Below, piece after piece: positions 383 to 13,165 of a DNA stretch of 13,165 nt. The stretch covers positions 1 through 13,165 of the forward strand of contig CACYEO010000086.1 of NCBI GenBank assembly GCA_902773475.1, read 5' to 3'. This stretch comes from an uncultured bacterium. Lineage in GTDB: Bacteria > Verrucomicrobiota > Kiritimatiellia > RFP12 > UBA1067. Within the stretch, counting starts at the first letter, position 1. Each line of letters starts with the position of its first letter. The notes beneath the pieces are model-generated. The model saw nothing but the letters and a program-made list of their open reading frames with translations, was not told the origin of the DNA and searched no databases. A program made the translations under genes and the position numbers.

Positions 383-712
383 ATGCCTGCTGAAAACTAC
401 ATGAGTCTGGAAGAGGTTGCCGAATTCCTCGGCGTGACCTATCAGTTGATTTACAGGCTTGTTCGCTCCGGCGAACTGCCTGCGGCGCGTCTCGGGAAAC
501 TGTACCGCGTTTCGCGCGCCGATCTCGAACGCTATCTCGAATCCAGCAAGACCCCCGCCGCAGGCGGCGTGTGCAGCGTGTGCGGCACGGTCTACAAATC
601 GTCTGGGTCCCTCGGCAACGTCTGCAAGGAAAGCGGTTGCGGCGAGCCTATATGCTTCGACTGCTGGAACCGTCTCGGCATCCGCTATTGCAAAAAGCAC
701 GCCAAGAAGTGA
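383..712 (+). CDS. DNA-binding protein with an N-terminal excisionase/MerR-superfamily helix-turn-helix and a C-terminal Cys-rich putative zinc-ribbon or zinc-binding tail.
   Basis: The N-terminal sequence is MSLEEVAEFLGVTYQLIYRLVRSGELPAARLGKLYRVSRADLERYLE. This matches the excisionase-family HTH pattern (L-x-EEAAE-LGVS-x-TVYRL-x-GELPA-R-G-x-RI-x-DLE-YL). The C-terminus reads CSVCG..CKESGCGEPICFDCW..YCKKH, with at least 8 Cys. RBS AAGGA is 6 nt upstream of the ATG. Confidence 0.8.
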   Translation: MPAENYMSLEEVAEFLGVTYQLIYRLVRSGELPAARLGKLYRVSRADLERYLESSKTPAAGGVCSVCGTVYKSSGSLGNVCKESGCGEPICFDCWNRLGIRYCKKHAKK

Positions 713-765
713 GAAGTCCGTTTTAAACGCGATTCGTCGAACGAAAAAAAGAAAGGAACGATCAA

Positions 766-2589
766 ATGGGTCTCTTCAGCGACATCTGCCCGGACTGCGG
801 CGCCAGGGTTTCAAAGCGCGCCAGATTCTGTTCAAAGTGCGGGCGCGGCGCCCCCGACGGGTGGTTCAAGTGTCCGCAGTGCGGCAAATGGGCAGGCAAC
901 GATTCCAAGTTCTGCCCGCACTGCAACCATCCGCTTTTCCCCGAAGAACGCATAGATCTCGCGGGCGGGGTCTGGGCGCGCAAGCCCGGGGAATTCGCGC
1001 GGCGTTTCGAGCTTGACGACGTCCGATTCATCAAAGAGAACGGCCTGCTTGTGCAGGAGGGGACTGTCGCCGTGTTGCTCGACGGCGGGAAAGAGGTGAA
1101 AGAACTCGGCCCAGGCCGCCACCACCCGACTGGAACGCTCCGTTCTATCAACTGGTTCGGCAATCCTCCCCCGCGTTCGGCCGTCATGGTCGACGCCGGG
1201 GAATGCATATTCAGGGTTGATTTCACCGGGAACAATTCCGGCGTGGGCGAAGTCCGGTCTGCGCCGCTGCGCACCGCCGAGGAACTGGAAGTCGGGTGCG
1301 TCGCGGAGATCACGGTGCGTTTTGTCGCCGGCAGGGCGGATAAATTCGTGGCCAACGTCATGAAAGAGTCCAGATCCGTTTCTGCGAAGGACGTATGCGC
1401 GCTTCTGTACGAGAACGCTCTTTCGGCCGTGCGCGATCTGTGTACGCAATCGAAGATCGAGGATCTGGTGAAGGATCCCGAACGCCGCGAGCGGTTCGAG
1501 GACGGAATAACCCGCGCGCTGCGCGAGAGCATGAAAGACTGGGGCCTTGAAATCGTCCGTACCGGCGCGGTCGAATTCTACGGCGCCGCATACGAGGAAA
1601 TCCGCGCCAAATACGGGGAGCTCGAAAAGTCCCGCAGACTTGTCGAATTCGGGAAAGCCCAGATCGAGGTTCTCGCCGCCGCCGCCGACCAGGAAGCGGC
1701 GGAAGGCAAGCGGAACGCGCAGCGCGACCGGGAGATGGAGGAATATCTTGCGCAGCTTGCGCAGGAGAAGGAGCTTTCCGCGCTCGAACGCGACCGGGAG
1801 CTGCAAATCGCCAGGCGCGTTTCGCAGGGCGAGATTTCCGCCGCAGAGGCCAGACTCGCGGCCGCGCGCGAACTTGAAGAACACGCGAAGGCGATGACGG
1901 CGCTGGCGCACAAGCTGGAACTCGATCTGACGCTGCGCAACTACGACAGGGAGCAGCTTGTCGCCGACGCCGACAACAAGGCGAAGCTTTCGGCCATCGC
2001 CCGCGACGAACGCCTGAAAGACGAAAAACTCGACACCTCCGTCATGGGCGAGAAGCTGAGCCAGGCGAAACTGAACGACGAAATCGAAAGAATCCGCATT
2101 TCGCGCGAGCAGTGGGAGGCGATGATATGGCTTGATGTCCGTAAAAAGAAAGACGACATCAAGAACCAGGGCATGCGCGACAGGCTCGACATGTTCTCCG
2201 GCAGGGACGCGCGGGCCGTCGCAGCCGTCATGGCGCAGGAAGGCGATCCTTCCGTATCGAGTGCGATCCTGGGGCAGGAGGCGGAAGCGGCCCGCATGGC
2301 GCACGATGAAAACATGTCCAGGATCCAGGCCGGGATGACCGCCGAGCAGATTCTTGCGACTGGCGCCGCGAAGAGCCCCGACGCGGCCAAGGAGGCGTAT
2401 GCGCGCGCGGCCGAGGCCGGAGAAAAGGCGAACGGGAAGGTGCTGGAAGAGCGGCGCGGGATGGATGCCGAAATCCGGGCCGACCGCGACAAGACCGAAG
2501 GGCGTGTAATCGGCCTTGCCGAGAAGGCGGTCGAGAAAAACACCACTGTAGTCCAGGCGCCGGCGCCGGTCACCAACATGCAGCACTGA
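766..2589 (+). CDS. SPFH (band-7/flotillin-like) domain protein with an N-terminal double zinc ribbon and a long C-terminal Glu/Ala/Arg-rich coiled-coil.
   Basis: The N-terminus has two CxxC-x10-CxxC units (CPDCG..CSKCG and CPQCG..CPHCN). Next comes an SPFH-like core (LVQEGTVAVLLDGGKEVKELGPGRHHP ... GLEIVRTGAVEFY). The remaining ~330 aa are heptad-like E/A/R/K-rich sequence typical of flotillin C-termini. RBS AAAGGAA lies upstream. Confidence 0.85.
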   Translation: MGLFSDICPDCGARVSKRARFCSKCGRGAPDGWFKCPQCGKWAGNDSKFCPHCNHPLFPEERIDLAGGVWARKPGEFARRFELDDVRFIKENGLLVQEGTVAVLLDGGKEVKELGPGRHHPTGTLRSINWFGNPPPRSAVMVDAGECIFRVDFTGNNSGVGEVRSAPLRTAEELEVGCVAEITVRFVAGRADKFVANVMKESRSVSAKDVCALLYENALSAVRDLCTQSKIEDLVKDPERRERFEDGITRALRESMKDWGLEIVRTGAVEFYGAAYEEIRAKYGELEKSRRLVEFGKAQIEVLAAAADQEAAEGKRNAQRDREMEEYLAQLAQEKELSALERDRELQIARRVSQGEISAAEARLAAARELEEHAKAMTALAHKLELDLTLRNYDREQLVADADNKAKLSAIARDERLKDEKLDTSVMGEKLSQAKLNDEIERIRISREQWEAMIWLDVRKKKDDIKNQGMRDRLDMFSGRDARAVAAVMAQEGDPSVSSAILGQEAEAARMAHDENMSRIQAGMTAEQILATGAAKSPDAAKEAYARAAEAGEKANGKVLEERRGMDAEIRADRDKTEGRVIGLAEKAVEKNTTVVQAPAPVTNMQH

Positions 2590-2606
2590 AGCGGCGCTTG
2601 CAGGAA

Positions 2607-3923
2607 ATGACAGACGGAGACCATGCAATCTGCGGAAAGTGCGGCGCCCGCAACGCGGCGGACGCCAATTTCTGCATGTCGTGCGGCGCGAGGATGGTAA
2701 GCGCGCCGCCGTCTGGCGCACCGTCCGCCGCCCCTCCCCCGCCCGCAGCCGCCGCGTTCGCGCCGGCCGCGGTTGGCGAAGGCCGTCCCTGCCCGCCGCC
2801 AGGCGATTCCGCCGTGCCGTTCGTTTTCGCCGTATGCTCGCCGGATGCGTTCTGCAAAGGGCAGGCCGGCGTGTTCGTGCTGCGCTTCCGCGCGCTCGCA
2901 GACGTGTTCGAAAGCGTGTCATTCGCCCTTGTGCACGGGCGGGACGCGGTAAGGAACGCGGCGATAGACGGCCGTCCCGGAATCTGGGAGCACGAAGTGA
3001 TAATGGATGTGCAGCCTGAAACGCCCGGGCAGACCGGATTCGTTTTCGAAGTCCGCTGCCGGCGCGACGGATACGCTGATGACGAGTGGGAGGTCTATGC
3101 ATCCGCGCCGGTCATAGTGACCGTTGACGTCGCTCCGGTGGCGCAGAATCTGAACATAGACTTGGGCGGCTTGAACGTCATTGCCGGACAGTCCGACCGC
3201 GCGGCGGATTCAAAGGCGGTCAACAACCAGGTTTTCAACATATCTTCGTCTGCCGTGTTCGACCCCAATTCCCCGCGGTACAGGAAGGGTGTGCGGGCCG
3301 GGGACTGCAGGATGCATTTGAAATCCGCGCCGCGAAGGCTCACGCTTCATTCGTCTTCTTCTTCCAGGACGCTGCTTCTTCTTTCGAAGAATGAAATATC
3401 GTTCGGGCGCAAAAACGAAGCGACCGATGTGTCGATAAGGTGTTTCGGCGACGGTGGAGAATGCGATATCCCGTTATCCAAGATGGTTTCGCGCAGGCAT
3501 TTCGCCATATCCTACGACGGCATGGAATGCCGCATTTCCGATTTGGGATCGACGAAAGGCACGGTTTTCGACGGAAGAACGGTCGCGCCCGGAATGCCGA
3601 AAAGGATCAAGCCCGATGTGCGGCATTCGCTGACGGTCGCCATAATGCCGGACTTTTCCATGGATGCATATTGCGACCGTCTGGGCATAACGACGGGACT
3701 TTCGATAGACAGGACCGACGGTGCGCGGCAGCGCGTGTTCGCCGTGTGGCGCATGGGCGTGCCGGCCGGAAACGGCGGCGGGGAATTCGGCTGGAACGGA
3801 AAGTATTTCGTGTTCAGCCGCGCCGGCGGCGGCTGCAATCCGCTGCTGCCTGGAATGTCCGTTGAAATCGACGGAGAAACCTACGATGTGCAGGTGTACA
3901 ACCAGCCGTATGGAACGGAGTGA
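2607..3923 (+). CDS. Zinc-ribbon FHA-domain protein. It has an N-terminal CxxC..CxxC zinc ribbon, a Pro/Ala-rich linker, a beta-rich middle region of unknown function, an FHA domain (approx nt 3397-3650) and a C-terminal region of unknown function. The start may instead be the TTG at 2598.
   Basis: The ribbon is CGKCGARNAADANFCMSCG. The linker is PPSGAPSAAPPPPAAAA. The FHA signature is ISFGRKNEATDVSI...VSRRHFAISYDGMECRISDLGSTKGTVFDG (G-R, S-RRH-A-I, DLGSTNGT pattern). Confidence 0.85.
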   Translation: MTDGDHAICGKCGARNAADANFCMSCGARMVSAPPSGAPSAAPPPPAAAAFAPAAVGEGRPCPPPGDSAVPFVFAVCSPDAFCKGQAGVFVLRFRALADVFESVSFALVHGRDAVRNAAIDGRPGIWEHEVIMDVQPETPGQTGFVFEVRCRRDGYADDEWEVYASAPVIVTVDVAPVAQNLNIDLGGLNVIAGQSDRAADSKAVNNQVFNISSSAVFDPNSPRYRKGVRAGDCRMHLKSAPRRLTLHSSSSSRTLLLLSKNEISFGRKNEATDVSIRCFGDGGECDIPLSKMVSRRHFAISYDGMECRISDLGSTKGTVFDGRTVAPGMPKRIKPDVRHSLTVAIMPDFSMDAYCDRLGITTGLSIDRTDGARQRVFAVWRMGVPAGNGGGEFGWNGKYFVFSRAGGGCNPLLPGMSVEIDGETYDVQVYNQPYGTE

Positions 3924-3945
3924 AAAAACGAAAAGGAGAAACCGG

Positions 3946-4398
3946 ATGAAAATCACGAAAAAACTGGCGGCGGCATTCGTCCTTGCCGCGATCGCGGGAT
4001 GCACGACATGTCCCGTTTACAAAGTGAACGCAACGGCTGCGACGCCGGGAGCGGAAAACCTCGCGCGCGGGATAGCTTTCGACGTGAACGGCGGGCTGCT
4101 TGCAAAGGGGTATCCGATGCTCGCGCCGGGCGCCAGACTGAAATCCGGCCAGCGGCTCGTTGCGATCGACCTTGAGGTGGAACGGCGCGAAACGGCGTCG
4201 CTGGGCGACTGGCGCACTTACGAAGGCGTCGTGAGGGCGAGCGTGACCGACGGCGGCAAGCCCGCCGGAGCCGCCGAGTTCCGCGCCGGAGGGGAACGCG
4301 CCGACAACGAAACGGACGCCGAGCGCGGAGTGCGCGAGGCTCTTGCAAAGAGAGTCGGCGAATGGGTGGGCGGAGTGTCCGTCCCGGAAACCAAATGA
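3946..4398 (+). CDS. Small lipoprotein of about 150 aa with a signal peptide and a lipobox.
   Basis: The N-terminus is MKITKKLAAAFVLAAIAGC, with an n-region, an h-region and the lipobox IAG|C. A strong RBS AAAAGGAGAA lies 7 nt upstream. The six-frame ORF starting at 3721 is an upstream extension that overlaps the preceding gene. Confidence 0.75.
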   Translation: MKITKKLAAAFVLAAIAGCTTCPVYKVNATAATPGAENLARGIAFDVNGGLLAKGYPMLAPGARLKSGQRLVAIDLEVERRETASLGDWRTYEGVVRASVTDGGKPAGAAEFRAGGERADNETDAERGVREALAKRVGEWVGGVSVPETK

Positions 4399-4437
4399 CG
4401 ATTGCAGTCAAATGACATCCATAAAGGAGAAAACGCG

Positions 4438-5676
4438 ATGAAATTCCTTGCAGTATTCGCAATGGCCGCTGCCGCCGCAGGCGCTGCTTTCGCCGATTGC
4501 GGCAAATTCAACGATTTGGAAAAAGAGGCCGTGCGCAAGGCCGCCGCGGAAATCGCGGCGTCCCTGCGCAAGTCGGACAAGTGCTCCGGGCGCGCGGTGA
4601 CGCTGCTGCCCGTCAACGGCGACAAAGACGGATATGCGGAGCGTCTGCTCACCGGCGCGCTTGTCAATTCCGGCATGACGGTCGTTATGCCGAACGATGA
4701 AAACGACGTCCGTTTCAAGAGAATCCTCGCCAGCATCAAATGGGACGGCCGCCAGGTGAAACTTGGATCGGTGGATACGTCGACCGTGGACGAACTCGGA
4801 AGGCTCCGTTCCACGCAGGTGTTCATCGAGGCGGTTCTCGACATCAAGAGCGAAGAAAAATCCGCCAAGGCCGATTTGCACGTTCTTTCGTACGTGGTGG
4901 CCACAAAGTCGTATCTCGACGCCGCGAACGGGGTGGGCAATGCCGAGGCTCCGGCTGAGCCCCCTCCCCCGCCGCCGCGGAAAGCATGGACCGAAACCGC
5001 GGTGCAGAACGAGATCGTTCCGCTGCGCGTGAAGGTGGACACCCGCGCGAAAGACGCGGAATCGGAAGGCGTGGCCCGCCGGCTTGATACGGCGGTGCGG
5101 GGCGCGCTCGCGAAGCTCGGCTTCAGGCTCGCCGGAGAGGACTGCGACGCGAAAACCGTCGCGCTCGACGACGTCACCGTCACGCTCGACGTAGGGCGCT
5201 CCGTGTTCGACAAAGCCGGAGAATACGAAATCCATGAAGCCAAAGTTGACTTGTCCGCCGTAAAAAAAGCCGGCGCCGGAACCCTGCTCGTCGGAACGGC
5301 GGTGTTCGACGAACGCGGGGACCGCAAGCTCGGCAGCTTCGCGGCAGACAGGAGTCTCGCGGAGAAACTCGAAGGGCCGGCGGTGGAATGGCTCAAGAAG
5401 AACATCGTGCAGAACACCGTGAAGACGGCCGCCGTGCAGTTTGAAGTCCGCCTTGCAAAGCCGATTGCCGTCGCGGGCGACATGTCCGTCGTGGAAAAAT
5501 TCATGCAGCCTTTCGCGCTGCTCGGCGGCGTGCGGCTGTACAGGCTCGACGCGCGCGACGACGAAGCCGGCATGCTTCGGTTCTTCGTCGTGTACGAAAC
5601 GGAAAAATTCCCGGGTGGTCTGGTGCCGGCGTATTTCGCGTCCGCTCCCGAGCTTGGAGAACTGCTTGACAAGTGA
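4438..5676 (+). CDS. Secreted or periplasmic protein with a signal peptide and two repeated domains of unknown function. It is a paralogue of the next gene.
   Basis: The N-terminus is MKFLAVFAMAAAAAGAAFA|DCG, preceded by RBS AAAGGAG. The motif VTLLPVNGDKDGY...W (a CsgG/LpoB/TolB-N-like first-strand pattern) is present. There is an internal PAEPPPPPPRK linker. It aligns clearly with 5718..6812 (VTLLPVNGDKDGYAERL...FKRILASIKWD..LGRLRSTQVFIEAVL versus VAVLPVAGDRDRYIAGRL...FGEILKEIAWD..FGRLQAAQVLLTATV). Confidence 0.8.
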   Translation: MKFLAVFAMAAAAAGAAFADCGKFNDLEKEAVRKAAAEIAASLRKSDKCSGRAVTLLPVNGDKDGYAERLLTGALVNSGMTVVMPNDENDVRFKRILASIKWDGRQVKLGSVDTSTVDELGRLRSTQVFIEAVLDIKSEEKSAKADLHVLSYVVATKSYLDAANGVGNAEAPAEPPPPPPRKAWTETAVQNEIVPLRVKVDTRAKDAESEGVARRLDTAVRGALAKLGFRLAGEDCDAKTVALDDVTVTLDVGRSVFDKAGEYEIHEAKVDLSAVKKAGAGTLLVGTAVFDERGDRKLGSFAADRSLAEKLEGPAVEWLKKNIVQNTVKTAAVQFEVRLAKPIAVAGDMSVVEKFMQPFALLGGVRLYRLDARDDEAGMLRFFVVYETEKFPGGLVPAYFASAPELGELLDK

Positions 5677-5717: not shown

Positions 5718-6812
5718 ATGAAAAAGACGATTTTGGCTTTGGTTCTGCCGTTGCTCTCCGCCGCAGCTTTGGCTTCCGGCGGGAGCGAAGATCTCATGCG
5801 CCAGACGGTTGATGCGGCGTTCAAGGACGTGCAGGACGCGATTGCGGCGTCTCCGGTTCCCGCCGGCGCGACCGTGGCCGTCCTGCCCGTGGCGGGCGAC
5901 CGCGACCGCTACATCGCGGGACGGCTCAAAAACGCCGTGACCGCGGGCGGGCGCAAGTGCGTAGAAGACAAGGACGATCCGGTTTTCGGTGAAATCCTCA
6001 AGGAAATAGCCTGGGACGAACGCAAAGAAGACATACTCGACCCGGCCACGGTGCAGAAATTCGGCAGGCTCCAGGCCGCGCAGGTTCTGCTGACCGCTAC
6101 CGTGCGCACCTTGGAATCGAACGAGCGATATTCGTTTTTCGAGTTCGAGCTGCACGCCACGGAAATCGCCACCAAACGGCATCTTTGGGGCGACGTGTTC
6201 GAAAAGCATCTCTACATGCCCGGGCTCGAGGACGCGGCCGGCGAGTCGGGAATCCCCGCGCCTCTTCGCGATGCGCTGGCGTCGGAAATGCGCGCGAAAA
6301 TCGAAGCGTCATTGAAAAAATCCGGGAAACTTTCGAACATCGGCAAAGTCGCATACCTCCCCCTTGCGGGCGACTCGAAGGGATACGTATTTTCGATAGT
6401 GCGCGATGCGGTTTCGTCCACGTCCATGTCGCTCGTCAATCTCGACGTCGCGACCCGCGGAGAAGCCCGCATGCGCCTGCGCGACAGGCGCGTCGCGGCG
6501 GATGCGCTTCTGAGCGGATCGGTGCGCGAGCTGTCCGGGAGCGTGGTCGAGGATTCGCCCGCCGGAAAGCGCTTCCGCTACCGCGCCGAGGTGCAGCTGT
6601 GCATCGAAGGGACCGACGGCGCCGCACTCTGGAGCGATACGATATCCATCGACGTCGAACGGGAAGAGGAACTCGGCATCTGGGGCAGACTGTGCAAACT
6701 GTTTCCGTCCCTTGCAAGCAAGCCGTGGCTTGCGGTCGTCGTTCCGGTCTGTCTGGTCCTGGGCGTCTTTGTTTTCATATCCGTCTTGCGCGGCATGACG
6801 CGCGTGAGGTGA
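5718..6812 (+). CDS. Secreted paralogue of the previous gene. It has a signal peptide, two VxxLPhxGDxxxY-type domains and a C-terminal transmembrane anchor.
   Basis: The N-terminus is MKKTILALVLPLLSAAALA with RBS AAAGGA. It has the motifs VAVLPVAGDRDRY and VAYLPLAGDSKGY. The C-terminus KPWLAVVVPVCLVLGVFVFISVL is hydrophobic. An alternative in-frame ATG at 5700 lacks an SD. Confidence 0.8.
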   Translation: MKKTILALVLPLLSAAALASGGSEDLMRQTVDAAFKDVQDAIAASPVPAGATVAVLPVAGDRDRYIAGRLKNAVTAGGRKCVEDKDDPVFGEILKEIAWDERKEDILDPATVQKFGRLQAAQVLLTATVRTLESNERYSFFEFELHATEIATKRHLWGDVFEKHLYMPGLEDAAGESGIPAPLRDALASEMRAKIEASLKKSGKLSNIGKVAYLPLAGDSKGYVFSIVRDAVSSTSMSLVNLDVATRGEARMRLRDRRVAADALLSGSVRELSGSVVEDSPAGKRFRYRAEVQLCIEGTDGAALWSDTISIDVEREEELGIWGRLCKLFPSLASKPWLAVVVPVCLVLGVFVFISVLRGMTRVR

Positions 6813-6816
6813 GACG

Positions 6817-7701
6817 GTGGATGTGAAAACCGAAACATGCTGCGTCTGCGGGCGGGAACTTCCGAACCGCTACGCCGTGGCCGGCCGCTGCGATGCGGAC
6901 GGCTGCGGCGCGCCGTTCTGTTCGCTCCACTGGCACGACGGCAACGGGAAGTGCCCTGCGCACGGACGGGAAGAGAAAAAAGAATCCGGCAATCGAGGAG
7001 GAGAGGGAATGTCCGAACATGAAACGATAGAAGGCGAAACCGCCGCATCCGCAGTCCCCGCCGCGCCGCCGCCGCAGGCGGAGCCGCGTACGACCGGGAA
7101 AACAGTCGCCGCGGCCGCGCTGAAAGGCTCCGTCTCCATAGGCAGAAGCGCAGTCGCGTATTTCAAGAAACTGTGCGGAATACGCGATCCCAAGGCCGCG
7201 CTCGCGGAGGCGGAAGCGTCCCTCGCCGCGGTAAGAGAGCGCAGAGAGCCGCTTTCGGCGCGGTACGAAGAGCTTTATTCGAAGATTGCCGCCAAAAAGA
7301 AACTCCGCGACGGCGCTTCTCCCGCAAGGCGCAAAATGCTGGACATGGAGCTTCGCACGCTTCTTGCGGAATACAAGAGCATAGAGCGCGAGGTGTCCGC
7401 GCTGTACAGGAAAGAAGAAATGGTCGTCACGGTCAGAGGCCGCATGAACGAACTGGTCGTACAGGGCCTGCCGATGCCGCGCGTCGAAGACGTCGACCGC
7501 CTTGCAGACGACATTTCCGACGCCCTCGACACGGATGAAGACCTTGCCGATGCCGTGGGCGAGCTGGACAAGATCGGCGCGGGACGCGAGCGCCATGCGC
7601 CGAATCTGGACGAGGAACTCGCGGAATTCGAGGAATCGGCGCCGGAGGGCGAAACCGCGCGGCTCAGGCCGGAAAACCCCGCCGCCACTGTCGGGGAATG
7701 A
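6817..7701 (+). CDS. Zinc-ribbon protein with a Snf7/ESCRT-III-like (or PspA-superfamily) helical domain. The helical half is basic at its N-terminal end and strongly acidic at its C-terminal tail.
   Basis: A GTG start overlaps the upstream stop (GTGAGGTGAgacgGTG), with a GAGGTG SD. The N-terminus is CCVCG..CDADGCGAPFCSLHWHDGNGKCPAHG. The central segment has KKLRDG..RRKMLDMELRTLLAEYKSIEREVSALYRKEEMVVTVRGRMNELVVQ followed by VEDVDRLADDISDALDTDEDLADAVGELD. This resembles yeast Snf7 ...NMDIDKVDELMQDIADQQELAEEIS. The acidic tail is LDEELAEFEESAPE. The ESCRT-III assignment is inferred from sequence similarity and charge asymmetry, without profile search. Confidence 0.7.
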   Translation: MDVKTETCCVCGRELPNRYAVAGRCDADGCGAPFCSLHWHDGNGKCPAHGREEKKESGNRGGEGMSEHETIEGETAASAVPAAPPPQAEPRTTGKTVAAAALKGSVSIGRSAVAYFKKLCGIRDPKAALAEAEASLAAVRERREPLSARYEELYSKIAAKKKLRDGASPARRKMLDMELRTLLAEYKSIEREVSALYRKEEMVVTVRGRMNELVVQGLPMPRVEDVDRLADDISDALDTDEDLADAVGELDKIGAGRERHAPNLDEELAEFEESAPEGETARLRPENPAATVGE

Positions 7702-7719: not shown

Positions 7720-9111
7720 ATGGCGTTGTTCATGAGCGAAGCCGAAAGAAGGCGCGATGCGCGGCGGCGCCGCCGCCGCGCTTTGCGCGAAGTCCGCAAC
7801 GCCGTGGATGCGGCGAGGTTGAAGCGCGATGAAATATGCAAGCGCCGCGCGGATGAATGGAAGGCCGCGCGGGCTGCGCTTTCCGCCGGAGACGAGGCCG
7901 ACGCGCGGCGGCGGCTCGAGTCGGTCAGGACTGACGATGCCGCGCTGAAGCGCCTCGACGCCCGGCTGGCCCGGTTCGAGGCGCTTGAACGCGAAATGGA
8001 ATGCGCCGACGCCGATGCGGCGTTCGACGAGGCGTCGGCGTCTCTTTCTCGCTTCGTAAAGGCTCCGGAGGAGGCCGGGGAGGCCGAATCCGCGCCGCCG
8101 CCCTCCGTGGACGAACTGCTTGAACTTCTCGCCAGAGAACCTGAAACCGAAAAAACCGAAGGAACGGCCGGCCGTCCGAAACCGCCGCCGGCGGCATCGT
8201 CTCTGAAGGTGGACGGCGATGCAGACGCGTCGTCGAAATGGGTCGCGACAAAGCCGTCCGCCGTGCGCCTTGAAGACGTTGTCGGTCTTGACGATGCCAA
8301 GACGGCCGTGATGGACGCGCTCGTCAATCCCGTGAACCATCCCGACATATACAAAACGCTCAAGGTCGCGCCCGGAACAGGGCTTCTCCTCTACGGCCCG
8401 CCGGGAACAGGCAAGACGCTTTTCGCGAAAGCCGTCGCCAACGAAATGGGGCTGCCGTTCCTCGACGTCCGCTGCGACAGACTGAAAAGCAAATACGTAG
8501 GCGAGACCGAAAAGAACGTGGCCGAAATGTTCCGCGCCGCCCGAGCGCTCGGCAGATGCGTGCTGTTTCTTGACGAATGCAACGCGATTCTTTCCCGCCG
8601 CGGAGACCAGAAGGTCTGCATGGTGGAGCAGTTTCTTGTGGAGCTTGACGGGTTCTCGACGTCCGACGCGCAATTGTTCGTCTTGATGGCCACGAACCTT
8701 CCCTGGACGCTCGATCCCGCAATCACGCGCAGCGGCCGCCTGAGCGAAGCCGTTTACGTAGGACTGCCTGACGAGGCCGCGCGGCGCAGGCTGATTGCAA
8801 ACGCGTTCAAGGACGCACCTCTGGCGGCGGATGTGGATCTCGACTCTCTCGCCGCCCGCACGGAGGGGTTCAGCGGCGCCGATCTGGCGGCCAAGGGCGG
8901 ACTTTGCCACAAGGCCAAGACGTACGCGGCCCGCCGCTGGGTGGAGCGCCGTACCGGCGCGCCGGCGAAAGACGGCCCGGCGTGGGACGCGGTCGAGCGG
9001 GTGACGGCTGCGGATGTCGAAAAGGCGCTTGCGGGAACCGTTCCGGTCGCCAGTTCGGCGGCGGATATCGTGCAGCGCAACAGGGAATTTTCTCTCAAGA
9101 AAGAGGTGTAG
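7720..9111 (+). CDS. AAA+ ATPase of the Vps4/katanin ('meiotic') clade with an N-terminal Arg-rich helical domain that may be MIT-like.
   Basis: RBS GGAGGTGA lies upstream. The Walker A region is [48 protein letters not shown] (compare Vps4 [26 protein letters not shown]...[22 protein letters not shown]). Walker B is [11 protein letters not shown]. The SRR/arginine-finger region is ILSRRGD...FLVELDGF. The clade-typical sequence is [20 protein letters not shown] (Vps4 GATNIPWVLDSAIRRRF). Confidence 0.9.
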   Translation: [463 protein letters not shown]

Positions 9112-9114: not shown

Positions 9115-9690
9115 ATGGCCTGGAAACTTGACGACAGCAGCGTCGGCCGCGAATTGAAGACCGGCGCCGGACCGAGCAAGAGGGAAAGATCTCTTCCTGC
9201 GGACGTCGCTTACGACGTGCAGCGCGTGCTGTACAGAAAATGGATCATCGCCGCGATAGAGTATCTGCTGAAGTTCGCCTTCTTCGCCGGACTGCTGTGG
9301 CTGGCGTGGCGCGGCGTGAAGTCGCTGCTTCCGGAAGACACCCCGGCTCCGCAGGCCCCGGCCGCCGTCCAGGCGGTTCCCGATGCACCGGCCGCGCAGG
9401 CGGCCGCCATAGGCGCGCCCGCAGTGCTCGGCCTCGCCCTGGCGGTGCTGCTCCTCCCCGTGATGACGATATCGTTCATAAGGACGATGGTTGCAAAGCG
9501 GTCGAACAGAGTGAACGCGTTCACTTTGGGCGTGTATACCGCGATAGACATGATCCTGGCGTATTTCATGGTAGGCGCGTCGCTTGAAACCGCCGTCTCC
9601 GCCGTGCTTTTCACCGGGGCGTCGTTGCTTTCGCTGATATACAACATGACTGTGATGAACTATGCCGTGAAACTCGAAGACGGAAAGTGA
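9115..9690 (+). CDS. Small integral membrane protein with 3-4 predicted TM helices and unknown function.
   Basis: RBS AGAGGTG lies upstream. The hydrophobic segments are IIAAIEYLLKFAFFAGLLWLAW, VLGLALAVLLLPVMTISFI, FTLGVYTAIDMILAYFMVGA and AVLFTGASLLSLIYNMTVM. Confidence 0.7.
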   Translation: MAWKLDDSSVGRELKTGAGPSKRERSLPADVAYDVQRVLYRKWIIAAIEYLLKFAFFAGLLWLAWRGVKSLLPEDTPAPQAPAAVQAVPDAPAAQAAAIGAPAVLGLALAVLLLPVMTISFIRTMVAKRSNRVNAFTLGVYTAIDMILAYFMVGASLETAVSAVLFTGASLLSLIYNMTVMNYAVKLEDGK

Positions 9691-9701
9691 AAGGCTGGCA
9701 A

Positions 9702-10667
9702 ATGGGCAGGCTTGACGAGATAGAAGCGCGCATCGACGCGCGCATGGCGGATATCGACAACCGCATTGACGCGATAGTCGGCGGGAACGGAACCGTGCCT
9801 CCAAAGGCAGGCTCCGCGGATACGCACAGGGGCTTCGCTCCGTTTGCGGAATCGCAACAGCCGGGAACCGCGCCTGGGATCCGCGGAATCGGGACGGCGG
9901 GCCGCGGGTCCGCGAGGCGCGTCGGACTGTGCGTGGGTTTGAACACCGTAGATTCTTCGGCATATCCAGGATACACCGTTCCGCCGCTTTCGGGCTGCAT
10001 CGCAGATGTGGAACGTCTCATGTGCGTGTTGAACAGGCTTGAATTCGAGGCCGCGAAACTTGTGGACGGACAGGCGACATGCGCCAATCTCTACAATGCC
10101 GTCAAAAAACTGACTGCCGTGTTGGAACCCGGAGATCTGTTCGTGCTGCACGTGTCCGGACACGGCGGACGGGTGAACGGCACGGGCGAGAACTGGTGTC
10201 TGTACGACGGGCTGGCGTGGGATTCCGACATCGTCTGGCTGTTTTCGCGCTTCCGTCCCGGCGTCCGCGTTCTTGTCATAAACGACCAATGCCATTCCGG
10301 CGGCATCTTCCAGTCCCGGAAGGCCGATGCGCCGTCTCCGTTCGGCGAACTGTGCAGGGCCGACGGACGCCCGGCGGACTGGGACGCCGGCGCCGCCGTG
10401 GCCGGGAAGGATTTCCCGATGCTCATCCAATTCGCCGGATGCCGCGCCGAGCAGACCAGCATCGACGGACTCGCCGGGGGAACCTGGACCCAGGCGCTTG
10501 TCAATGCGCTTGACGCCGCCGTTTCGCAGAATGCATATCTTACTTACAGGCAGTGGTTCGACTGCGCGTTTGCAAGCCCTGCGCTCCAGCGCGGGCGGCA
10601 GGATCCGCAGTGGGTGGAGAGTGCGGGCGTGACGGATGAATTCCGCGGTTGCGCGGCGCTTTTCTGA
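9702..10667 (+). CDS. Caspase-like cysteine peptidase (C14, metacaspase/orthocaspase-like) with a short N-terminal coiled-coil. An alternative GTG start at 9687 overlaps the upstream stop.
   Basis: The sequence runs VGLCVGLNTVDSSAYPGYTVPPLSGCIADVERL...LVDGQATCANLYNAVKKL...GDLFVLHVSGHGG (catalytic His in SGHG, nt ~10161)...GVRVLVINDQCHSGG (catalytic Cys in D-x-CHSG, nt 10290-10292). This is the metacaspase-type D[AS]CHSG signature. Confidence 0.85.
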   Translation: MGRLDEIEARIDARMADIDNRIDAIVGGNGTVPPKAGSADTHRGFAPFAESQQPGTAPGIRGIGTAGRGSARRVGLCVGLNTVDSSAYPGYTVPPLSGCIADVERLMCVLNRLEFEAAKLVDGQATCANLYNAVKKLTAVLEPGDLFVLHVSGHGGRVNGTGENWCLYDGLAWDSDIVWLFSRFRPGVRVLVINDQCHSGGIFQSRKADAPSPFGELCRADGRPADWDAGAAVAGKDFPMLIQFAGCRAEQTSIDGLAGGTWTQALVNALDAAVSQNAYLTYRQWFDCAFASPALQRGRQDPQWVESAGVTDEFRGCAALF

Positions 10668-10683
10668 CAGCGGGGGCATTGCG

Positions 10684-11997
10684 ATGAAACATGTTTTCGA
10701 CAGCAGGGATTTTTTGGCGTCCGCCAATACTGAGCGGCGCGCCGACGGAATGCGGCCGGACGTCAGAGACGCTCCGGCACAGGACGGAAAGGTTCCACAG
10801 TGGATGACCGCATCGCTTGCAAGAACCGTGATCGTCACGCTTGCGATAGGAGCGATGCTGTATTTCGTCTTTCAAAACGAGTTCCTTTCCCGTCTGGGCA
10901 ATTGCGTGCTTGCGGCGTTGTTCGTGCCTCTTTTGAGCGAACTCGTCGCCGGGCTTCTGCGCAGGAAAAACGTGCAGCGCGTTTCGGGCGTGCGCGCGAT
11001 TGCGGCATGCGACAGGAAATACGTGAAATTCGCCTGCTTTGCGCATCTGCTTCTCGCAGCCGTCCTTGCGGCATTCATCGCGATAGGATTCTGGAACGGA
11101 AGGAGCAAGTCCGGGGCGGACGTGGCGAAAGTCTCTGACGGACAGCCTGCCGGGGCCCCGGCGGAAACAGCGCCTGAACCTGAAGCGCCCTGTTCCGGCA
11201 GACTTGCAAAAGCCGGCGCCGCGAAAGTCTCGCCCGGGCAGATAAAGGCGTATTTGACGCCTTCAGACGCCGAGGTGGAACAATTGTACCAAATGGTCGT
11301 CGCGGCTCCGTTCGTCGCCGAGAACCTGCAGTATCGCGACCGCCTTGCGAACATTCCGTTCGTGTATATCGCCACGAACGATGTTGTCAATGCCTCTTCG
11401 CTTCGAAATGTCGTGGAGAAGAACGGAGAAAAGTCGCTCGTGTTCCATACGGTGCTCTTCGGCGGCGCGGCGCGGTACGCCCGGCTCGTCGGCCTCGCGG
11501 CCGCTCTGCAGGACTCCGGACGCGGGGACATGCTCAAAAAGTTCGTGGCCGCGATGCCTAAGCGCTTCTGCGGCGTCTGCGACGAAGAGTCCTGCGAAAA
11601 ATTCATAACGGACAACGGATTGGACGAAGCACTCGCAGACGAGAAAATCCGGCTGCGCGCCGTGTCCTATTCCTCCGGCACGATAATAAGCATTCTCGCG
11701 CACGAGTGCGGACATCACGCCCTCGGGCATCTGCTGGGCTTTCCCCGGAAAGAGAATCTGTCCATCGACCGGAACCAGGAGCGGGAGGCTGACTCTTTTG
11801 CGTCGTCCGTCATCAGTGCAAGTCCGTTCGGAGAGTTCATATTCGCGGGAACCCTGTTTTGGCACTATGCAGTCGCCATGCAGTCGGAGGACGGCCGGTC
11901 TGCGGCTGGCGACCATCCGCATTCCAGAGAGCGTTTTGAGAATTTCGTGAAATCCAACCGGGAAAAAGCGGCGGCGATGGGAATAACGCTGGAATGA
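10684..11997 (+). CDS. Membrane-anchored zinc metalloprotease, M48/M56-like (HExxH...ExxAD). A longer in-frame start at 10636 would overlap the caspase gene.
   Basis: N-terminal TM helices are ARTVIVTLAIGAMLYFVF, CVLAALFVPLLSELVAGLL and FAHLLLAAVLAAFIAIGFW. The zinc-binding site is ISILAHECGHHALGHLLG (nt ~11701-11730), and the downstream QEREADSFA resembles the third zinc-ligand Glu motif of M48 peptidases. Confidence 0.8.
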   Translation: MKHVFDSRDFLASANTERRADGMRPDVRDAPAQDGKVPQWMTASLARTVIVTLAIGAMLYFVFQNEFLSRLGNCVLAALFVPLLSELVAGLLRRKNVQRVSGVRAIAACDRKYVKFACFAHLLLAAVLAAFIAIGFWNGRSKSGADVAKVSDGQPAGAPAETAPEPEAPCSGRLAKAGAAKVSPGQIKAYLTPSDAEVEQLYQMVVAAPFVAENLQYRDRLANIPFVYIATNDVVNASSLRNVVEKNGEKSLVFHTVLFGGAARYARLVGLAAALQDSGRGDMLKKFVAAMPKRFCGVCDEESCEKFITDNGLDEALADEKIRLRAVSYSSGTIISILAHECGHHALGHLLGFPRKENLSIDRNQEREADSFASSVISASPFGEFIFAGTLFWHYAVAMQSEDGRSAAGDHPHSRERFENFVKSNREKAAAMGITLE

Positions 11998-13165
11998 CTG
12001 ACGAAACATTGAGCGATGCTGTGACGCTTGACGGCGGGAATGACCGGATTCTCGCCGGGCGCTATCGCATATTGAAACAGCTCGGCGCAGGCGGCATGGG
12101 GTCGGTCTGGCTCGCAGAGGACATGCAGTTAGACAACAAGCTTTTCGCAATAAAGATGCTGCCGCAGGTTGTCGCTTCCGACAAGGAAGCCGCCAACTCG
12201 GTCAAGCGCGAAGCGAAAGTCGCGATGAAGCTTTCGCATTCCAATATCGTCGTTTTGCGCGATTATGTCGAAAACGGCGGCAATCCTTTTTTGCTGATGG
12301 ATTATGTCGAGGGCATGCCCCTGTCATCCTGTCTTGCGGATTGGGGACGGCTTTCTCCCGAAGAAACAATCGCTCTTCGCGCTCCTGTCGCCGCCGCCAT
12401 AGACTATGCGCACACGCAAGGCGTGATACACCGGGACATAAAACCCGGCAATATAATCGTCCGCGCAAAAGACGTCACGCCGTTCGTGCTGGATTTCGGC
12501 ATCGCGCGCGATGTGCATGAAAGCATGTCGCGAATGACCGGCAAACAGCCGTCGGGCACATTGATGTACATGTCGCCGGAGCAGATCAACGGCGAACTCC
12601 CCGCAAAGGCGCACGACATATATTCGTTCGCCGCCACGGTGTACCAGTGCCTTGCCGGAAAACCGCCTTTCAGCAGGGGCGACATAACCCACCAGATTCT
12701 CGACAACCCTCCCCCGCCGTTGCCTCCGGGATGCTCTGGCAGGCTTGGCGCGGCGGTAATGGCCGGTCTGGATAAAAATCCGGCTAAACGGCCTTTGTCG
12801 TGTACTAATCTGCTGCGGGGAATAATTCCGGACGGCAAAAAACCGCGGCGCTTGCTAAACAACATGCTGCCGCGCCCTTCCAAAAAAAGGATATTGCCGT
12901 TTTTTATCACGGGCGTTCTTGTTTCATTGATTGCCGGCGGTGTATATTACGGTTTGTCTAAACAATGGAAAACCAGTGATGGAAATGCCGTTCCAAAGCA
13001 CGGCGACACGAAGACAATCACTCTTCCAGACAGAGCGACGACGGAAATGGTATACGTCGAGCCAAAGCACGGCGACACGAAGACAATCACTCTCCCCGGC
13101 GGAGCGACGATGGAACTGATATATGTCGCGCCCGGCTCTTTCACGATGGGAAGCCCTTCTTTCGA
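11994..13165 (+). CDS. Hanks-type Ser/Thr protein kinase with a TM segment and an extracytoplasmic FGE-sulfatase/SUMF1-like domain. It is 3'-truncated by the window edge.
   Basis: I translated this myself, because it has no stop in the window and is therefore missing from the ORF track. The ATG overlaps the upstream TGA (ATGA). Kinase motifs are LGAGGMGSVW (G-loop), FAIKML (VAIK), VIHRDIKPGN (catalytic loop, nt ~12428), LDFGIA (DFG) and YMSPE (APE). The TM segment is ILPFFITGVLVSLIAGGVYYGL. The start of the FGE-type domain is MELIYVAPGSFTMGSP. Confidence 0.9.
   Translation, partial: MTDETLSDAVTLDGGNDRILAGRYRILKQLGAGGMGSVWLAEDMQLDNKLFAIKMLPQVVASDKEAANSVKREAKVAMKLSHSNIVVLRDYVENGGNPFLLMDYVEGMPLSSCLADWGRLSPEETIALRAPVAAAIDYAHTQGVIHRDIKPGNIIVRAKDVTPFVLDFGIARDVHESMSRMTGKQPSGTLMYMSPEQINGELPAKAHDIYSFAATVYQCLAGKPPFSRGDITHQILDNPPPPLPPGCSGRLGAAVMAGLDKNPAKRPLSCTNLLRGIIPDGKKPRRLLNNMLPRPSKKRILPFFITGVLVSLIAGGVYYGLSKQWKTSDGNAVPKHGDTKTITLPDRATTEMVYVEPKHGDTKTITLPGGATMELIYVAPGSFTMGSPSF
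12993..13130 (+). repeat. In-frame tandem duplication of a 69-bp (23-codon) unit inside the kinase gene.
   Basis: CCAAAGCACGGCGACACGAAGACAATCACTCT occurs at 12993 and again, identically, at 13062. The remainder of the two copies is diverged (PKHGDTKTITLPDRATTEMVYVE versus PKHGDTKTITLPGGATMELIYVA). Confidence 0.85.

Follow-up and report, generated by a model that had tools for sequence, protein, structure and literature searches.

In the non-Asgard ESCRT loci of archaea (the Main, Halo_FHA, and Meth_adaptin clades) and in CdvB/CdvC, Snf7 adjoins an ATPase with an MIT domain and a single AAA domain; the archaeal ESCRT loci also encode FHA proteins, membrane Ser/Thr kinases, and SPFH proteins with coiled coils and Zn ribbons, carry Zn ribbons on several components, and have an HTH/wHTH protein in first position (Makarova et al., 2024; PMC10936438). 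PspA/Vipp1 systems combine an ESCRT-III-superfamily protein with an SPFH scaffold, Zn-ribbon and membrane proteins, a dedicated regulator, and sometimes an AAA+ ATPase, their expected site of action being the inner membrane under envelope stress; associations of PspA with Band-7 and AAA+ proteins are described (Ravi et al., 2024; PMC11237479), and in B. subtilis (PspA-YdjI), according to work as cited in PMC10936438, PspA is linked to the membrane by an SPFH protein. Recent reviews regard the pairing of Snf7 with its own Vps4-style ATPase as absent from bacteria. Bacterial Snf7-AAA+ links are noted only in transporter-type operons, and VPS4-like ATPases are noted in Verrucomicrobia with a TPR-6TM protein in place of Snf7 (Ravi et al., 2024; PMC11237479).

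Contrary to these reviews, the gene cluster described here appears to pair a bacterial ESCRT-III (Snf7) protein with a dedicated Vps4-style ATPase. It lies in a contig of 13,165 nucleotides from an uncultured gut or rumen member of the Verrucomicrobiota (CACYEO010000086.1; the whole stretch analysed, hereafter the window). The cluster family resembles both groups of systems in the respects listed above. It differs from archaeal ESCRT in its bacterial (PVC) host, in having no recognised ESCRT-I/II-like, adaptin-like, or CdvA-like proteins, in its exported paralogues of LpoB-like type, in proteases that are interchangeable and share an N-terminal helix, and, in the window, in an N-terminal half of Snf7 in place of the MIT domain. 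Unlike in PspA/Vipp1 systems, the polymer protein is of the Snf7 (PF03357) rather than the PspA_IM30 family, the ATPase is an MIT-like classical AAA rather than PspF or a beta-propeller AAA+, control is proposed to be exerted by a Ser/Thr kinase and an FHA protein, and proteases are attached. A literature search found no published description of this gene combination, in line with an earlier remark that it was not recognised as a described system. We favour, at slightly better than even probability, a reading of the cluster as a kinase-gated, SPFH-scaffolded ESCRT-III/AAA machine for membrane remodelling or repair that recruits proteases; its likeliest output would be remodelling or repair of the inner membrane together with local proteolysis.

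Organisation and distribution of the cluster

The window holds 12 open reading frames (g1 to g12), all on the + strand, from position 383 to its end. Successive gaps from g1 to g12 are 53, 17, 22, 39, 41, 4, 18, 3, 11, 16, and −4 nt (range −32 to +53 nt with the longest alternative starts), which agrees with the preliminary description of one-strand genes spaced by 0–55 bp or overlapping. No terminator-like sites were found in the window's intergenic gaps, and the number of such sites equals that in shuffles. A sigma-70-type promoter-like site, TTGACA-18-TATCAT (324–353, + strand; 11 of 12 consensus positions), is rated strong, precedes the twelve genes, and lies 30 nt 5′ of the g1 start. Upstream lie four short tandem arrays (170–310, unstranded; TRF and the sequence itself): GTTTGAGT (×4), TGGAAATGTTGCCAGTG (×3.2), TGGGGAA (×3.7), and an A-rich AAAATA/AAATAAAAAT array; the region closes with an A-rich element shortly 5′ of the −35 hexamer. 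In 12 related loci the −35 is directly preceded by an A-rich element conforming to AAACAAAyATAAAyAAAAA, and related loci also have −35/−10-like hexamers in the equivalent position before the HTH gene; this predicted promoter with its upstream element is conserved across loci. The arrays and A-rich element may constitute an UP element or operator.

The same core recurs in about 50 related loci from MAGs of Kiritimatiellae, Lentisphaerae, and Verrucomicrobiota, many from rumen or gut, and the family is so far known only from the PVC group. It comprises an HTH_17 regulator, a Zn-ribbon-SPFH protein, a Zn-ribbon-FHA protein, exported paralogues, g7, Snf7, and an AAA ATPase, in most cases joined by a receptor Ser/Thr kinase. 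The comparison gene throughout was g7, whose homologues in the compared loci are 27–50% identical to that of the window. Among the 25 loci with enough flank to be tallied, g7 is present in 25 (by construction for loci found with the g7 profile), Snf7 in 24, the AAA ATPase and g2-type SPFH protein in 23 each, the HTH regulator (g1) in 22, the exported paralogues in 21 (g4/g5-type) and 18 (g6), the kinase in 20, and the FHA-type protein (g3) in 19. Synteny is seen both in loci retrieved with g7 and in those retrieved independently by the Snf7 profile, and linkage is kept despite rearranged gene order in L013, L019, L024, and L029. The association is not fortuitous, because the same genes recur in dozens of diverged loci and survive changes of order, and the neighbourhood comparison thus bears out the coherent conserved unit suggested earlier. 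Judged from record titles, the hosts are polymer-degrading gut or rumen PVC bacteria. Housekeeping genes flank the loci, unlike defence islands or mobile elements, and no loci were found in IMG/VR viral contigs; both observations speak against an abortive-infection or conflict system, a reading considered with the proteases below.

Snf7, the ATPase, and g7

In g8 (7720–9111, + strand), the first ~113–115 residues (7720–8064; BLASTP and alignment A2) correspond to an N-terminal Snf7 half that is joined in frame with the AAA ATPase. Residues 3–111 match residues 5–113 of the stand-alone Snf7 of L005 (BLASTP E 6e-10), which itself scores 34.8 bits against PF03357 (GA 27.3), and the segment is colinear with stand-alone Snf7 in alignment A2. 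This fusion is found in 22 protein clusters of 457–482 aa from independent assemblies and in L007, L008, and L009, while relatives have a separate Snf7 (PF03357) gene. All 12 stand-alone members match PF03357 at E ≤ 0.01 (34.8 bits at best), and the family profile is colinear with yeast Snf7 (5fd7) at a marginal E of 0.043. The AAA core and lid of g8 (8257–9111, + strand; PF00004 E 1.7e-36, AAA_lid_3) contain Walker A GPPGTGKT (residue 226), the pore loop SKYVG (257), and Walker B DEC (285).

MIT domains bind the tails of ESCRT-III proteins. The stand-alone AAAs of relatives consist of an N-terminal MIT-like three-helix domain, a linker, and one AAA domain, the architecture of Vps4. In the window sub-lineage the Snf7 N-terminal half replaces the MIT-like domain and is fused directly to the ATPase. 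The window has neither full-length Snf7 nor an MIT domain, and the mechanism here must therefore differ from that of the relatives. Against NCBIfam models the window AAA scores 196 (CDC48), 174 (PAN), 167 (FtsH), and 162 bits (CdvC), all below cut-off. Across the cluster family the AAAs reach 162–196 bits for CdvC/Vps4, as against a curated CdvC cut-off of 650, and 196–215 bits for Cdc48-D2, missing every curated cut-off, and Vps4_C was not detected. The ESCRT-like ATPase module named in the preliminary description is thus present, with PF03357 Snf7 adjoining an MIT-like AAA in relatives, although Snf7 had been misplaced onto g7. The label "Vps4-like" needs correction for the window AAA, which has no MIT domain and which curated HMMs place at least as near to Cdc48-D2 or PAN as to CdvC/Vps4.

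The g7 protein (6817–7701, + strand; family alignment A1 and an AF2 model with pLDDT 75.7) comprises a Cys/His Zn module (1–52), a disordered linker, a long helical hairpin core (125–255), and a C-terminal helix with a conserved LxxxLAxF motif. For g7, formerly designated Snf7-like, ESCRT-III homology could not be demonstrated: there is no Pfam match, no profile homology to the Snf7 family of the loci is detectable, and fold-search matches are non-specific. Its relatives number only 125 among 1.84 billion representatives. No other genes are linked to the AAA as tightly as Snf7 and g7, which are adjacent to it or fused. In the proposed remodelling machine, Snf7 and g7 would come together at SPFH-organised sites on the cytoplasmic side of the inner membrane, and the ATPase, recruited by MIT/C-terminal-helix contacts in relatives and by a covalent tether in the window, would remodel or disassemble the Snf7/g7 polymer.

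Scaffold, signalling, and envelope genes

The 607-residue product of g2 (766–2589, + strand; Pfam) is cytoplasmic and combines a double Zn ribbon (Zn_Ribbon_1 and DZR also match), an SPFH/Band_7 domain (E 2.8e-11), and a long coiled coil; a topology scan found no hydrophobic or TM segment. The first gene, g1 (383–712, + strand), encodes an HTH_17/excisionase-type DNA-binding protein (residues 6–54; Pfam HTH_17 E 2.6e-17, TIGR01764 E 5.7e-17) with a C-terminal Cys/His module (63–109) that resembles the N-terminal module of g7 (BLASTP E 4e-5), a predicted Zn module common to both. A Zn ribbon (Zn_Ribbon_1 E 5.7e-7), a Pro/Ala linker, a middle domain, an FHA domain (residues 266–335; E 4.3e-8), and a C-terminal domain make up g3 (2607–3923, + strand; Pfam). 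The receptor Ser/Thr kinase g12 (11994–13165, + strand, truncated by the window end and running beyond 13165; Pkinase E 5.8e-42) has HRDIK, DFG, and SPE motifs and one TM segment (300–318), followed by the beginning of an extracytoplasmic FGE-sulfatase-type domain; PF03781 is present in full-length relatives. The Pfam E-values uphold the HTH, SPFH, FHA, and kinase labels given earlier. We propose that an envelope signal sensed by the kinase would gate assembly via the FHA protein.

The exported paralogues would couple the machine to the envelope. The small lipoprotein g4 (3946–4398, + strand; translation and hydrophobic N-terminus) has a signal peptide ending in the lipobox LAAIAGC and no Pfam match. 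A signal peptide is also present in g5 (4438–5676, + strand), for which there is no Pfam family, and in its paralogue g6 (5718–6812, + strand; 31% identity over 140 aa, E 1.7e-11), which has a C-terminal TM anchor (residues 338–356) and a weak LpoB-like stretch (LpoB PF13036 E 0.0021, TIGR02722 E 3.4e-4; both below cut-off); the g6-family profile A3 has no match in the PDB. Four hydrophobic segments identify g9 (9115–9690, + strand) as a four-TM membrane protein. This gene set is as first described, a lipoprotein with two secreted paralogues and a 4-TM protein. The last is restricted to the window sub-lineage and L034-type loci: homologues in L007, L008, and L009 are 45–70% identical, and its C-terminal 74 aa share 51% identity with the TM tail of L034 proteins. 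L034-/L035-type relatives additionally encode DUF4384 and caspase-LRR proteins.

An SPFH scaffold co-encoded with an AAA-family ATPase and proteases also recalls HflK/C-FtsH and stomatin-NfeD, the analogy drawn in the preliminary description. As one cluster holds SPFH, proteases, and a classical AAA that scores 167 bits with the FtsH model, a split quality-control system could be envisaged in which a caged AAA unfoldase feeds membrane or envelope proteins to separate proteases, Snf7 and g7 being accessory. We regard this as very improbable. Unlike in those systems, the SPFH protein has a Zn ribbon where a TM anchor would be and is cytoplasmic, the ATPase and proteases are separate genes, the latter variable and optional, and an ESCRT-III module is added; moreover, the proteases, which many loci can do without, are not of self-compartmentalising types, and the ATPase has Snf7 and g7 as its closest partners and an MIT-like N-domain.

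Proteases and their shared N-terminal helix

The caspase-like C14 protease g10 (9702–10667, + strand; Peptidase_C14 E 1.1e-13) is cytoplasmic, without a signal peptide, and its catalytic dyad (His152 in SGHG, Cys197 in CHSG) supports the original assignment. The three-TM zincin metalloprotease g11 (10684–11997, + strand) has HECGH at residue 340 and EREAD at 366, and its family shares an invariant HExGHxxxGH...NxER.ADSF; by the positive-inside rule its catalytic domain is probably extracytoplasmic. Its earlier description as M48-like went too far, with an M48 score of 14.7 bits (cut-off 20.3) limited to the HExxH region and, for the family profile, ZMPSTE24 as sole PDB match (E 0.58, over the same region). 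Weak Peptidase_U49 (Lit-like) matches are recorded for g11 relatives. As judged from sequence motifs, the catalytic sites are intact. The two proteases first described are both present here, but they are accessory and variable: C1/C14 proteases and g11 each occur in 9 of the 25 well-covered loci, and 8 loci with a full core have no protease recognised by similarity to the reference set.

One N-terminal helix, always directly after the start Met, is common to C14, C1-C14, M4, and HExxH proteases; in g10 it comprises residues 1–26 (9702–9779, + strand; top score in the motif scan). Across loci it is shared by caspase, papain-like, thermolysin-like, HExxH, and, less clearly, trypsin-like types. 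In the remodelling machine, these interchangeable proteases, here caspase-like and HExxH zincin, would dock by the helix as clients or effectors.

The helix could instead be a signal loading proteases into buds, in an archaeal-ESCRT-type system for cargo sorting and vesicle formation, with Snf7 and the AAA cutting buds to yield periplasmic or outer-inner membrane vesicles carrying hydrolases. Unrelated enzymes do bear one common helix, the hosts are polymer degraders by their record titles, and the gene content is like that of archaeal ESCRT loci proposed for protein sorting (SPFH with Zn ribbon, FHA, STK; PMC10936438). Pfam and NCBIfam searches, however, detected neither ESCRT-I/II-like nor adaptin-like proteins nor ubiquitin components; the caspase, lacking a signal peptide, could be released only by shedding whole cytoplasmic buds, inner-membrane buds of a diderm cell end in the periplasm, and the cargo is unrecognised in 8 of 25 loci. 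We consider this reading improbable.

Swapping of protease type is a hallmark of conflict systems, and protease types varying around a constant adaptor helix fit such an effector-swapping pattern. The kinase/FHA pair and exported sensors would then register an attack on the envelope, such as by phage, whereupon the AAA would release or activate interchangeable helix-docked effectors, and Snf7, g7, and SPFH would form an assembly platform or membrane-directed effector. As in IetAS/AAA-protease defence and caspase conflict systems (Kaur et al., 2020; PMC7159879), a classical AAA accompanies proteases including a caspase-like one, effector type varies, and the regulator is of HTH_17 type. In PADLOC the AAA best matches IetA (E 3.3e-37), the HTH protein MADS mad1 (E 2.4e-10), and the caspase, weakly, the caspase model; the DUF4384, caspase-LRR, and U49 observations above point the same way. 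These PADLOC/NCBIfam matches are, however, domain-level and far below cut-offs (IteA 128 versus 510 bits, MADS1 37 versus 80), there is no IetS-type subtilase, and no match is found among the NTPase-centred architectures that Kaur et al. (2020; PMC7159879) describe. The large conserved core, with its structural ESCRT-III/MIT-AAA pair, is typical of cell-biological machinery, and the full core persists in the eight loci without recognised protease. In our assessment a conflict system is unlikely, yet a serious alternative.

Among comparable systems, human calpain-7, AMSH, and USP8 are MIT-domain proteases recruited to ESCRT-III; unlike these, the cluster proteases bear a short helix rather than an MIT domain, with the polarity reversed.

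Conservation of the gene cluster

Twelve consecutive plus-strand ORFs (g1–g12) run from 383 to the window end, separated by 53, 17, 22, 39, 41, 4, 18, 3, 11, 16, and −4 nt with the starts best backed by purine-rich stretches upstream, and by −32 to +53 nt with the longest possible starts. The preliminary description of a co-directional, tightly packed gene run from 383 is therefore correct as a description, and synteny, the lack of which it would have taken as a sign of fortuitous association, is clearly present across loci. In relatives with a 37%–73% identical g7 (6817–7701), one and the same gene order recurs: HTH_17, DZR + Band_7, an FHA-type protein, two or three exported proteins, g7, a ~200-residue protein, an AAA ATPase, and then small transmembrane (TM) proteins, proteases, and kinases.

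The g7 relatives number 69 at 90% clustering, and all are metagenome- or MAG-derived. The 25 loci obtained by scanning species-representative genomes are all in MAGs; 24 of them belong to Kiritimatiellae, Lentisphaerae/Victivallales, or Verrucomicrobiota, or to rumen MAGs without classification. The lone exception (L022) is a 1.9-kb contig, CAYSRP010000186.1, in a Methanomicrobiales archaeon MAG bin, where a g7 homologue is followed by an AAA gene; because the contig is short and the distribution otherwise exclusively PVC, this is probably a mis-binned sequence rather than an archaeal copy, which, if real, would be relevant to the question of origin. Scanning metagenomes with a profile of the ~200-residue protein added 62 loci, and all contigs that are long enough show the same neighbors. 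No relatives occur on IMG/VR contigs, and a phage or mobile origin was rejected on this basis.

When 25 non-redundant loci with ≥7 kb of sequence 5′ and ≥5 kb 3′ of the anchor gene are pooled, g7 is present in 25/25, the ~200-residue protein (Snf7) in 24/25, AAA and SPFH each in 23/25, HTH in 22/25, g4/5-type proteins in 21/25, the kinase in 20/25, g3-type proteins in 19/25, and g6-type proteins in 18/25. Linkage is kept where the order is altered: the loci L013, L019, and L029 have a Snf7-AAA-kinase block 5′ of g7, and L024 consists of two halves in divergent orientation.

Snf7-family proteins, their ATPase, and g7

Profile comparisons identify the ~200-residue protein encoded beside the AAA gene in relatives as a Snf7-family (ESCRT-III) protein. 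All 12 stand-alone members tested match PF03357 at E ≤ 0.01, the best with 34.8 bits (GA 27.3) and 140 of 171 model positions covered, and the family profile aligns colinearly with yeast Snf7 (5fd7), with a marginal E (0.043). Searching 5.8 billion proteins retrieved 474 Snf7-type clusters, and many of the 120 listed carry a precomputed PF03357 match. The stand-alone proteins end in a conserved C-terminal helix, ..DxRIxxGQxRVKxLL (A2, the alignment of the Snf7 family of the loci). There is no separate ~200-residue Snf7 gene in the window; residues 3–111 of g8 (7720–9111), the AAA gene, align with residues 5–113 of stand-alone Snf7 (BLASTP E 6e-10; colinear in A2), implying that the Snf7 N-terminal half is fused to the ATPase, and that the C-terminal half, including the terminal helix, has been lost. 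Residues 3–111 have no direct match in Pfam, and the Snf7 membership of g8 is by transitive homology, for the N-terminal half alone. The fusion recurs in 22 protein clusters (457–482 residues) from ENA, Logan, JGI, and NCBI assemblies, as well as in L007, L008, and L009, which rules out an assembly artefact. The linker that follows (residues 116–179; 8065–8256) is of low complexity and Pro/Ala/Glu-rich, except for a helix-like stretch, SVDELLELLAR.

The ATPase part of g8 (AAA, E 1.7e-36) consists of one PF00004 domain plus a lid; the AAA adjoins Snf7 in relatives and is fused to it in the window, as in criterion ii of Makarova et al. (2024), a single classical-clade AAA domain encoded beside ESCRT-III. 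Its scores with curated models (CDC48 [D2 region], 196 bits; PAN, 174; FtsH, 167; CdvC, 162; IteA, 128) are all far below the respective cut-offs, and by these models g8 is a classical-clade AAA without a clear home. With the CdvC model NF041006 (cut-off 650), relatives score 152–196 bits, CDC48, PAN, and FtsH being similar or higher. Since the curated HMM scores do not favor CdvC over Cdc48, PAN, or FtsH, identification of g8 as a Vps4 orthologue was rejected. The PDB ranking of g8 is headed by p97/Cdc48, and Vps4_C (PF09336) was not found in it by Pfam; an N-terminal MIT domain is absent, with the Snf7 half in its place, and Pfam MIT is not matched.

The stand-alone ATPases of relatives have an N-terminal domain of ~72 residues that is absent in the window. 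Pfam MIT does not match this domain, and its profile gives marginal matches only, the only natural, full-length, and colinear ones being the MIT domains of VPS4B/SKD1 (1wr0, E 0.077; 2jqh, E 0.19; and four more). AF2 predicts a three-helix bundle with high confidence (pLDDT 95.5), and the top 13 structural matches to it include MIT domains of VPS4A, calpain-7, yeast Vps4, and katanin, interleaved with TPR-like proteins. The ATPase of L005 aligns with the CdvC model end to end (6–367 on 9–366 of 370). As judged from these comparisons, the relatives pair Snf7 with an MIT-like AAA, which is the ESCRT-III/Vps4 architecture, a likeness that need not reflect orthology to Vps4; in the window a covalent link presumably replaces the tail-to-MIT contact, and the fusion offers a natural experiment on the purpose of that contact.

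Of all components, g7 is tied most closely to Snf7 and AAA; in a compact locus (L034) the g7-core, Snf7, and AAA genes lie in a row. In this protein an invariant Cys/His module (C8, C11, C25, C30, C35, C46, H49) precedes a disordered linker and a helical core, and an LxxxLAxF motif is conserved at the C-terminus; the AF2 model (pLDDT 75.7) contains a helical hairpin of 42 + 47 residues and then two more helices. It matches no Pfam family, Foldseek gave nothing below E 0.1, and the PDB matches of its profile are weak, with colinear CHMP4B (E 0.11) and Snf7 (E 0.85) among designed coiled coils. Comparison with the Snf7 family of the loci (hhalign) gave a low probability of 0.13, and searching 1.84 billion representatives with the g7 profile recovered 125 relatives only, the distant ones having no Snf7 or PspA match. 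g7 therefore appears to form a family distinct from the Snf7 of the loci, and ESCRT-III homology could not be shown for g7; its size, hairpin, conserved C-terminal helix, and place beside Snf7/AAA are compatible with ESCRT-III, not specific for it. A second g7 helical core, Zn-less and 83% identical to the g7 of the same locus, lies directly 5′ of the Snf7-AAA fusion gene in L008 (12737–13321), indicating that g7-type proteins can be duplicated, like ESCRT-III paralogues.

The preliminary description had named g7 as Snf7-like and g8 as Vps4-like. Snf7 homology does exist, but it resides in the N-terminal half of g8 and in the stand-alone relatives, the matches of g7 being weak and non-specific; likewise an MIT-like AAA does lie beside Snf7 in relatives, but g8 itself is without MIT and does not reach the CdvC cut-off.

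A 99% identical protein cluster exists for the AAA protein of the window, whose AAA core is 59% identical to the ATPases of a compact locus type and ~40% identical to those of standard loci. The compact type, found in Lentisphaeria (L034, 8710–19709; L035, 3303–19229), comprises a g7-core homologue, Snf7, an MIT-like AAA, and a protein with a g6-like domain and a g9-like TM tail, as well as DUF4384, C1 peptidases, and caspases, one with LRRs. Given this gene content and the kinship of the AAA cores, the block of AAA, g9 (9115–9690; four TM segments), and caspase in the window seems to have come from the compact type, by exchange between two related types of system. L035 has two AAA genes.

According to a 2025 review, a Vps4-like ATPase appears absent from bacteria (PMC7619361). 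Links of bacterial Snf7 and PspA to AAA+ ATPases in transporter-type operons have been reported, as has transfer of VPS4-like ATPases to Verrucomicrobia and other phyla with a TPR-6TM protein replacing Snf7 (Ravi et al., 2024, PMC11237479), so the bare bacterial Snf7-ATPase link has precedent. A full-text literature search, which did not cover one paper on Snf7/Vps4 and Lentisphaerae, found no account of the cluster, in keeping with the earlier remark that the combination is not a described system, and no description of an MIT-like ATPase beside Snf7, a Snf7-AAA fusion, or the protease helix discussed in the next section. The occurrence of a bacterial Snf7 and an MIT-like AAA with SPFH, FHA, and kinase proteins, as in archaeal loci, bears on the origin and timing of the ESCRT-III/ATPase partnership, which could be ancient, convergent, or transferred.

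Candidate scaffold, signaling proteins, and proteases

The remaining conserved proteins include a candidate scaffold and phospho-signaling components. g2 (766–2589) has a double Zn ribbon, an SPFH/Band_7 domain (E 2.8e-11; PF01145, 44.2 bits, gathering score 23.6), and a long coiled coil, and is atypical for SPFH in being without a TM or hairpin anchor. g3 (2607–3923) combines a Zn ribbon with an FHA domain (E 4.3e-8; 33.9 bits, cut-off 20.7). g12 (11994 to beyond 13165, cut by the window end) is a Hanks-type kinase (Pkinase, E 5.8e-42; motifs HRDIK, DFG, and SPE), encoded within one gene unit with the FHA domain, and continues into one TM segment and the start of an FGE-sulfatase-type ectodomain, the type also seen in full-length relatives. 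Together, the kinase ectodomain and the FHA protein suggest gating through phosphorylation in response to an envelope signal. At the start of the extracytoplasmic domain of g12 (residues 335–380; 12996–13133), a 23-residue segment, KHGDTKTITLP..(A/G)T.E..YV.P, is duplicated in tandem. g4 (3946–4398) is a lipoprotein, and g5 (4438–5676) and g6 (5718–6812) are exported paralogues (E 1.7e-11 to each other), g6 having a C-terminal TM anchor; the profile of the exported-paralogue family gave nothing against the PDB, with LpoB matches only sub-threshold.

We lean toward reading the cluster as a kinase-gated ESCRT-III/AAA system for membrane remodeling or repair, with an SPFH platform and recruited proteases. 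The genes that are most regularly present and most closely linked encode structural membrane-remodeling parts, the gene company matches that of archaeal ESCRT loci and bacterial PspA-SPFH systems, and the loci lie amid housekeeping genes and not on viral contigs, all of which support this reading. An HflKC-FtsH-like split quality-control machine seems to us very improbable. The cluster offers a compact bacterial protein set in which to study how an SPFH scaffold, phospho-signaling, and an ESCRT-III polymer cooperate.

g10 (9702–10667) is, as first described, a caspase-like protease (Peptidase_C14, E 1.1e-13; PF00656, 51.9 bits, cut-off 21.4), with a catalytic dyad of His152 (SGHG) and Cys197 (CHSG). 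The proposed assignment of g11 (10684–11997; three TM segments and an HExxH domain) to M48 could not be upheld: PF01435 scores 14.7 bits, under its cut-off of 20.3, over only 18 residues around HExxH, and the family profile matches ZMPSTE24 at E 0.58 over the same metal-binding motif alone. The family keeps HExGHxxxGH and NxER.ADSF, with ~22 residues between HExxH and ExxAD; g11 is a zincin without an assigned family.

Protease content varies by locus. It includes a trypsin-like protease (L001), thermolysin-like M4 enzymes (L007, L008), a papain-like + lectin + caspase fusion (L007), caspases (the window, L003, L008), and HExxH zincins of the g11 type. Among the 25 pooled loci, g11-type enzymes occur in 9, C1/C14 in 9, trypsin in 3, and M4 in 2, with none recognized in 8; the proteases are accessory to the cluster. 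A conflict system with protease effectors would agree with this swapping of effectors around a constant adaptor and with the caspase-LRR/DUF4384 relatives, but the loci that have no recognized protease, and the lack of any system-level PADLOC match, make it doubtful. PADLOC matched the ten proteins scanned at domain level only (IetA for AAA, mad1 for HTH, and one caspase model; 7/10 had none), and a known anti-phage defense system was rejected because these matches are generic. Were the cluster a defense system, it would be of a new type made of membrane-remodeling parts.

An N-terminal helix of ~25 residues is common to proteases of the unrelated classes C14, C1-C14, M4, and HExxH. It forms the N-terminus of the window caspase (MGRLDEIEARIDARMADIDNRIDAI; 9702–9779), the M4 protease of L007 (MGRLDEIGRRIDERMAEISRRMDG), the C1-C14 protease of L007 (MSRLDDIQRRIDERMADIDRKINDV), and the zincin of L005 (MDSLDDIEARVRSRMQDMDERLASRM). 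An HMM built from these four seeds recovered ~20 ORFs in the loci, always with the motif directly after the start Met; sites besides that in the window are in L007 (from 7611 and from 11550), L005 (from 15665), L008 (from 10834), L011, L026, L077, and L087. The trypsin-like protease of L001 has a similar-looking start (MSRIDELRSRDERQAARLG), followed by a TM segment; it was not recovered in the HMM scan of the loci, and possibly belongs to the set, by inspection only. The helix may be a common docking or sorting element, and its presence on four, possibly five, protease classes would amount to a testable recruitment code. Any resemblance of it to the C-terminal helix of Snf7 is no more than an impression.

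More tentatively, the cluster might encode a genuine ESCRT-III/Vps4-type machine in PVC bacteria, in which the short helix would serve as an address tag recruiting, sorting, or activating interchangeable proteases. Such a machine would consist of a Snf7-family polymer, an MIT-AAA disassemblase, an SPFH platform, and kinase/FHA control, an architecture matching that of archaeal ESCRT systems. That the tagged proteases are instead the cargo of a vesicle- or cargo-sorting system appears unlikely.

Regulator and upstream region

The regulator g1 (383–712) has an HTH_17 domain (E 2.6e-17) and a C-terminal Cys/His module (residues 63–109; 569–709) that resembles the module of g7 (residues 7–52; 6835–6972; BLASTP E 4e-5), the common pattern being CxxCG...C..GC..P.C..W....C..H. 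Regulator and structural protein may therefore have a common ligand or partner, which suggests that transcription control could be tied to the structural protein, recalling by analogy the regulator-structural-protein logic of PspF-PspA.

The G+C content of the window is ~62%, and lower in the first 380 bases. A predicted promoter-like site, TTGACA-18-TATCAT (324–353, plus strand), agrees with the consensus at 11/12 positions and lies 30 nt 5′ of the g1 start. Terminator-like sites are as numerous as the shuffled expectation, with 0 in the intergenic gaps, and neither Rfam nor tRNA features turned up in the window. An ORF of 89 codons (78–347), with an odd Cys/Gly-rich translation, overlaps tandem repeats and has no family match, and was for these reasons treated as probably non-coding. 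Four short tandem arrays lie just 5′ of the promoter-like site (170–310): GTTTGAGT ×4, the 17-mer TGGAAATGTTGCCAGTG ×3.2, TGGGGAA ×3.7, and A-rich repeats. In 12 divergent loci the region 5′ of the HTH gene carries the A-rich element AAACAAAyATAAAyAAAAA and, after it, −35 and −10 hexamers. Only this element, beside the −35 hexamer, is common to the related loci; the three further arrays (170–275) seem to be window-specific, and may represent sites for the regulator or sequence prone to slippage.
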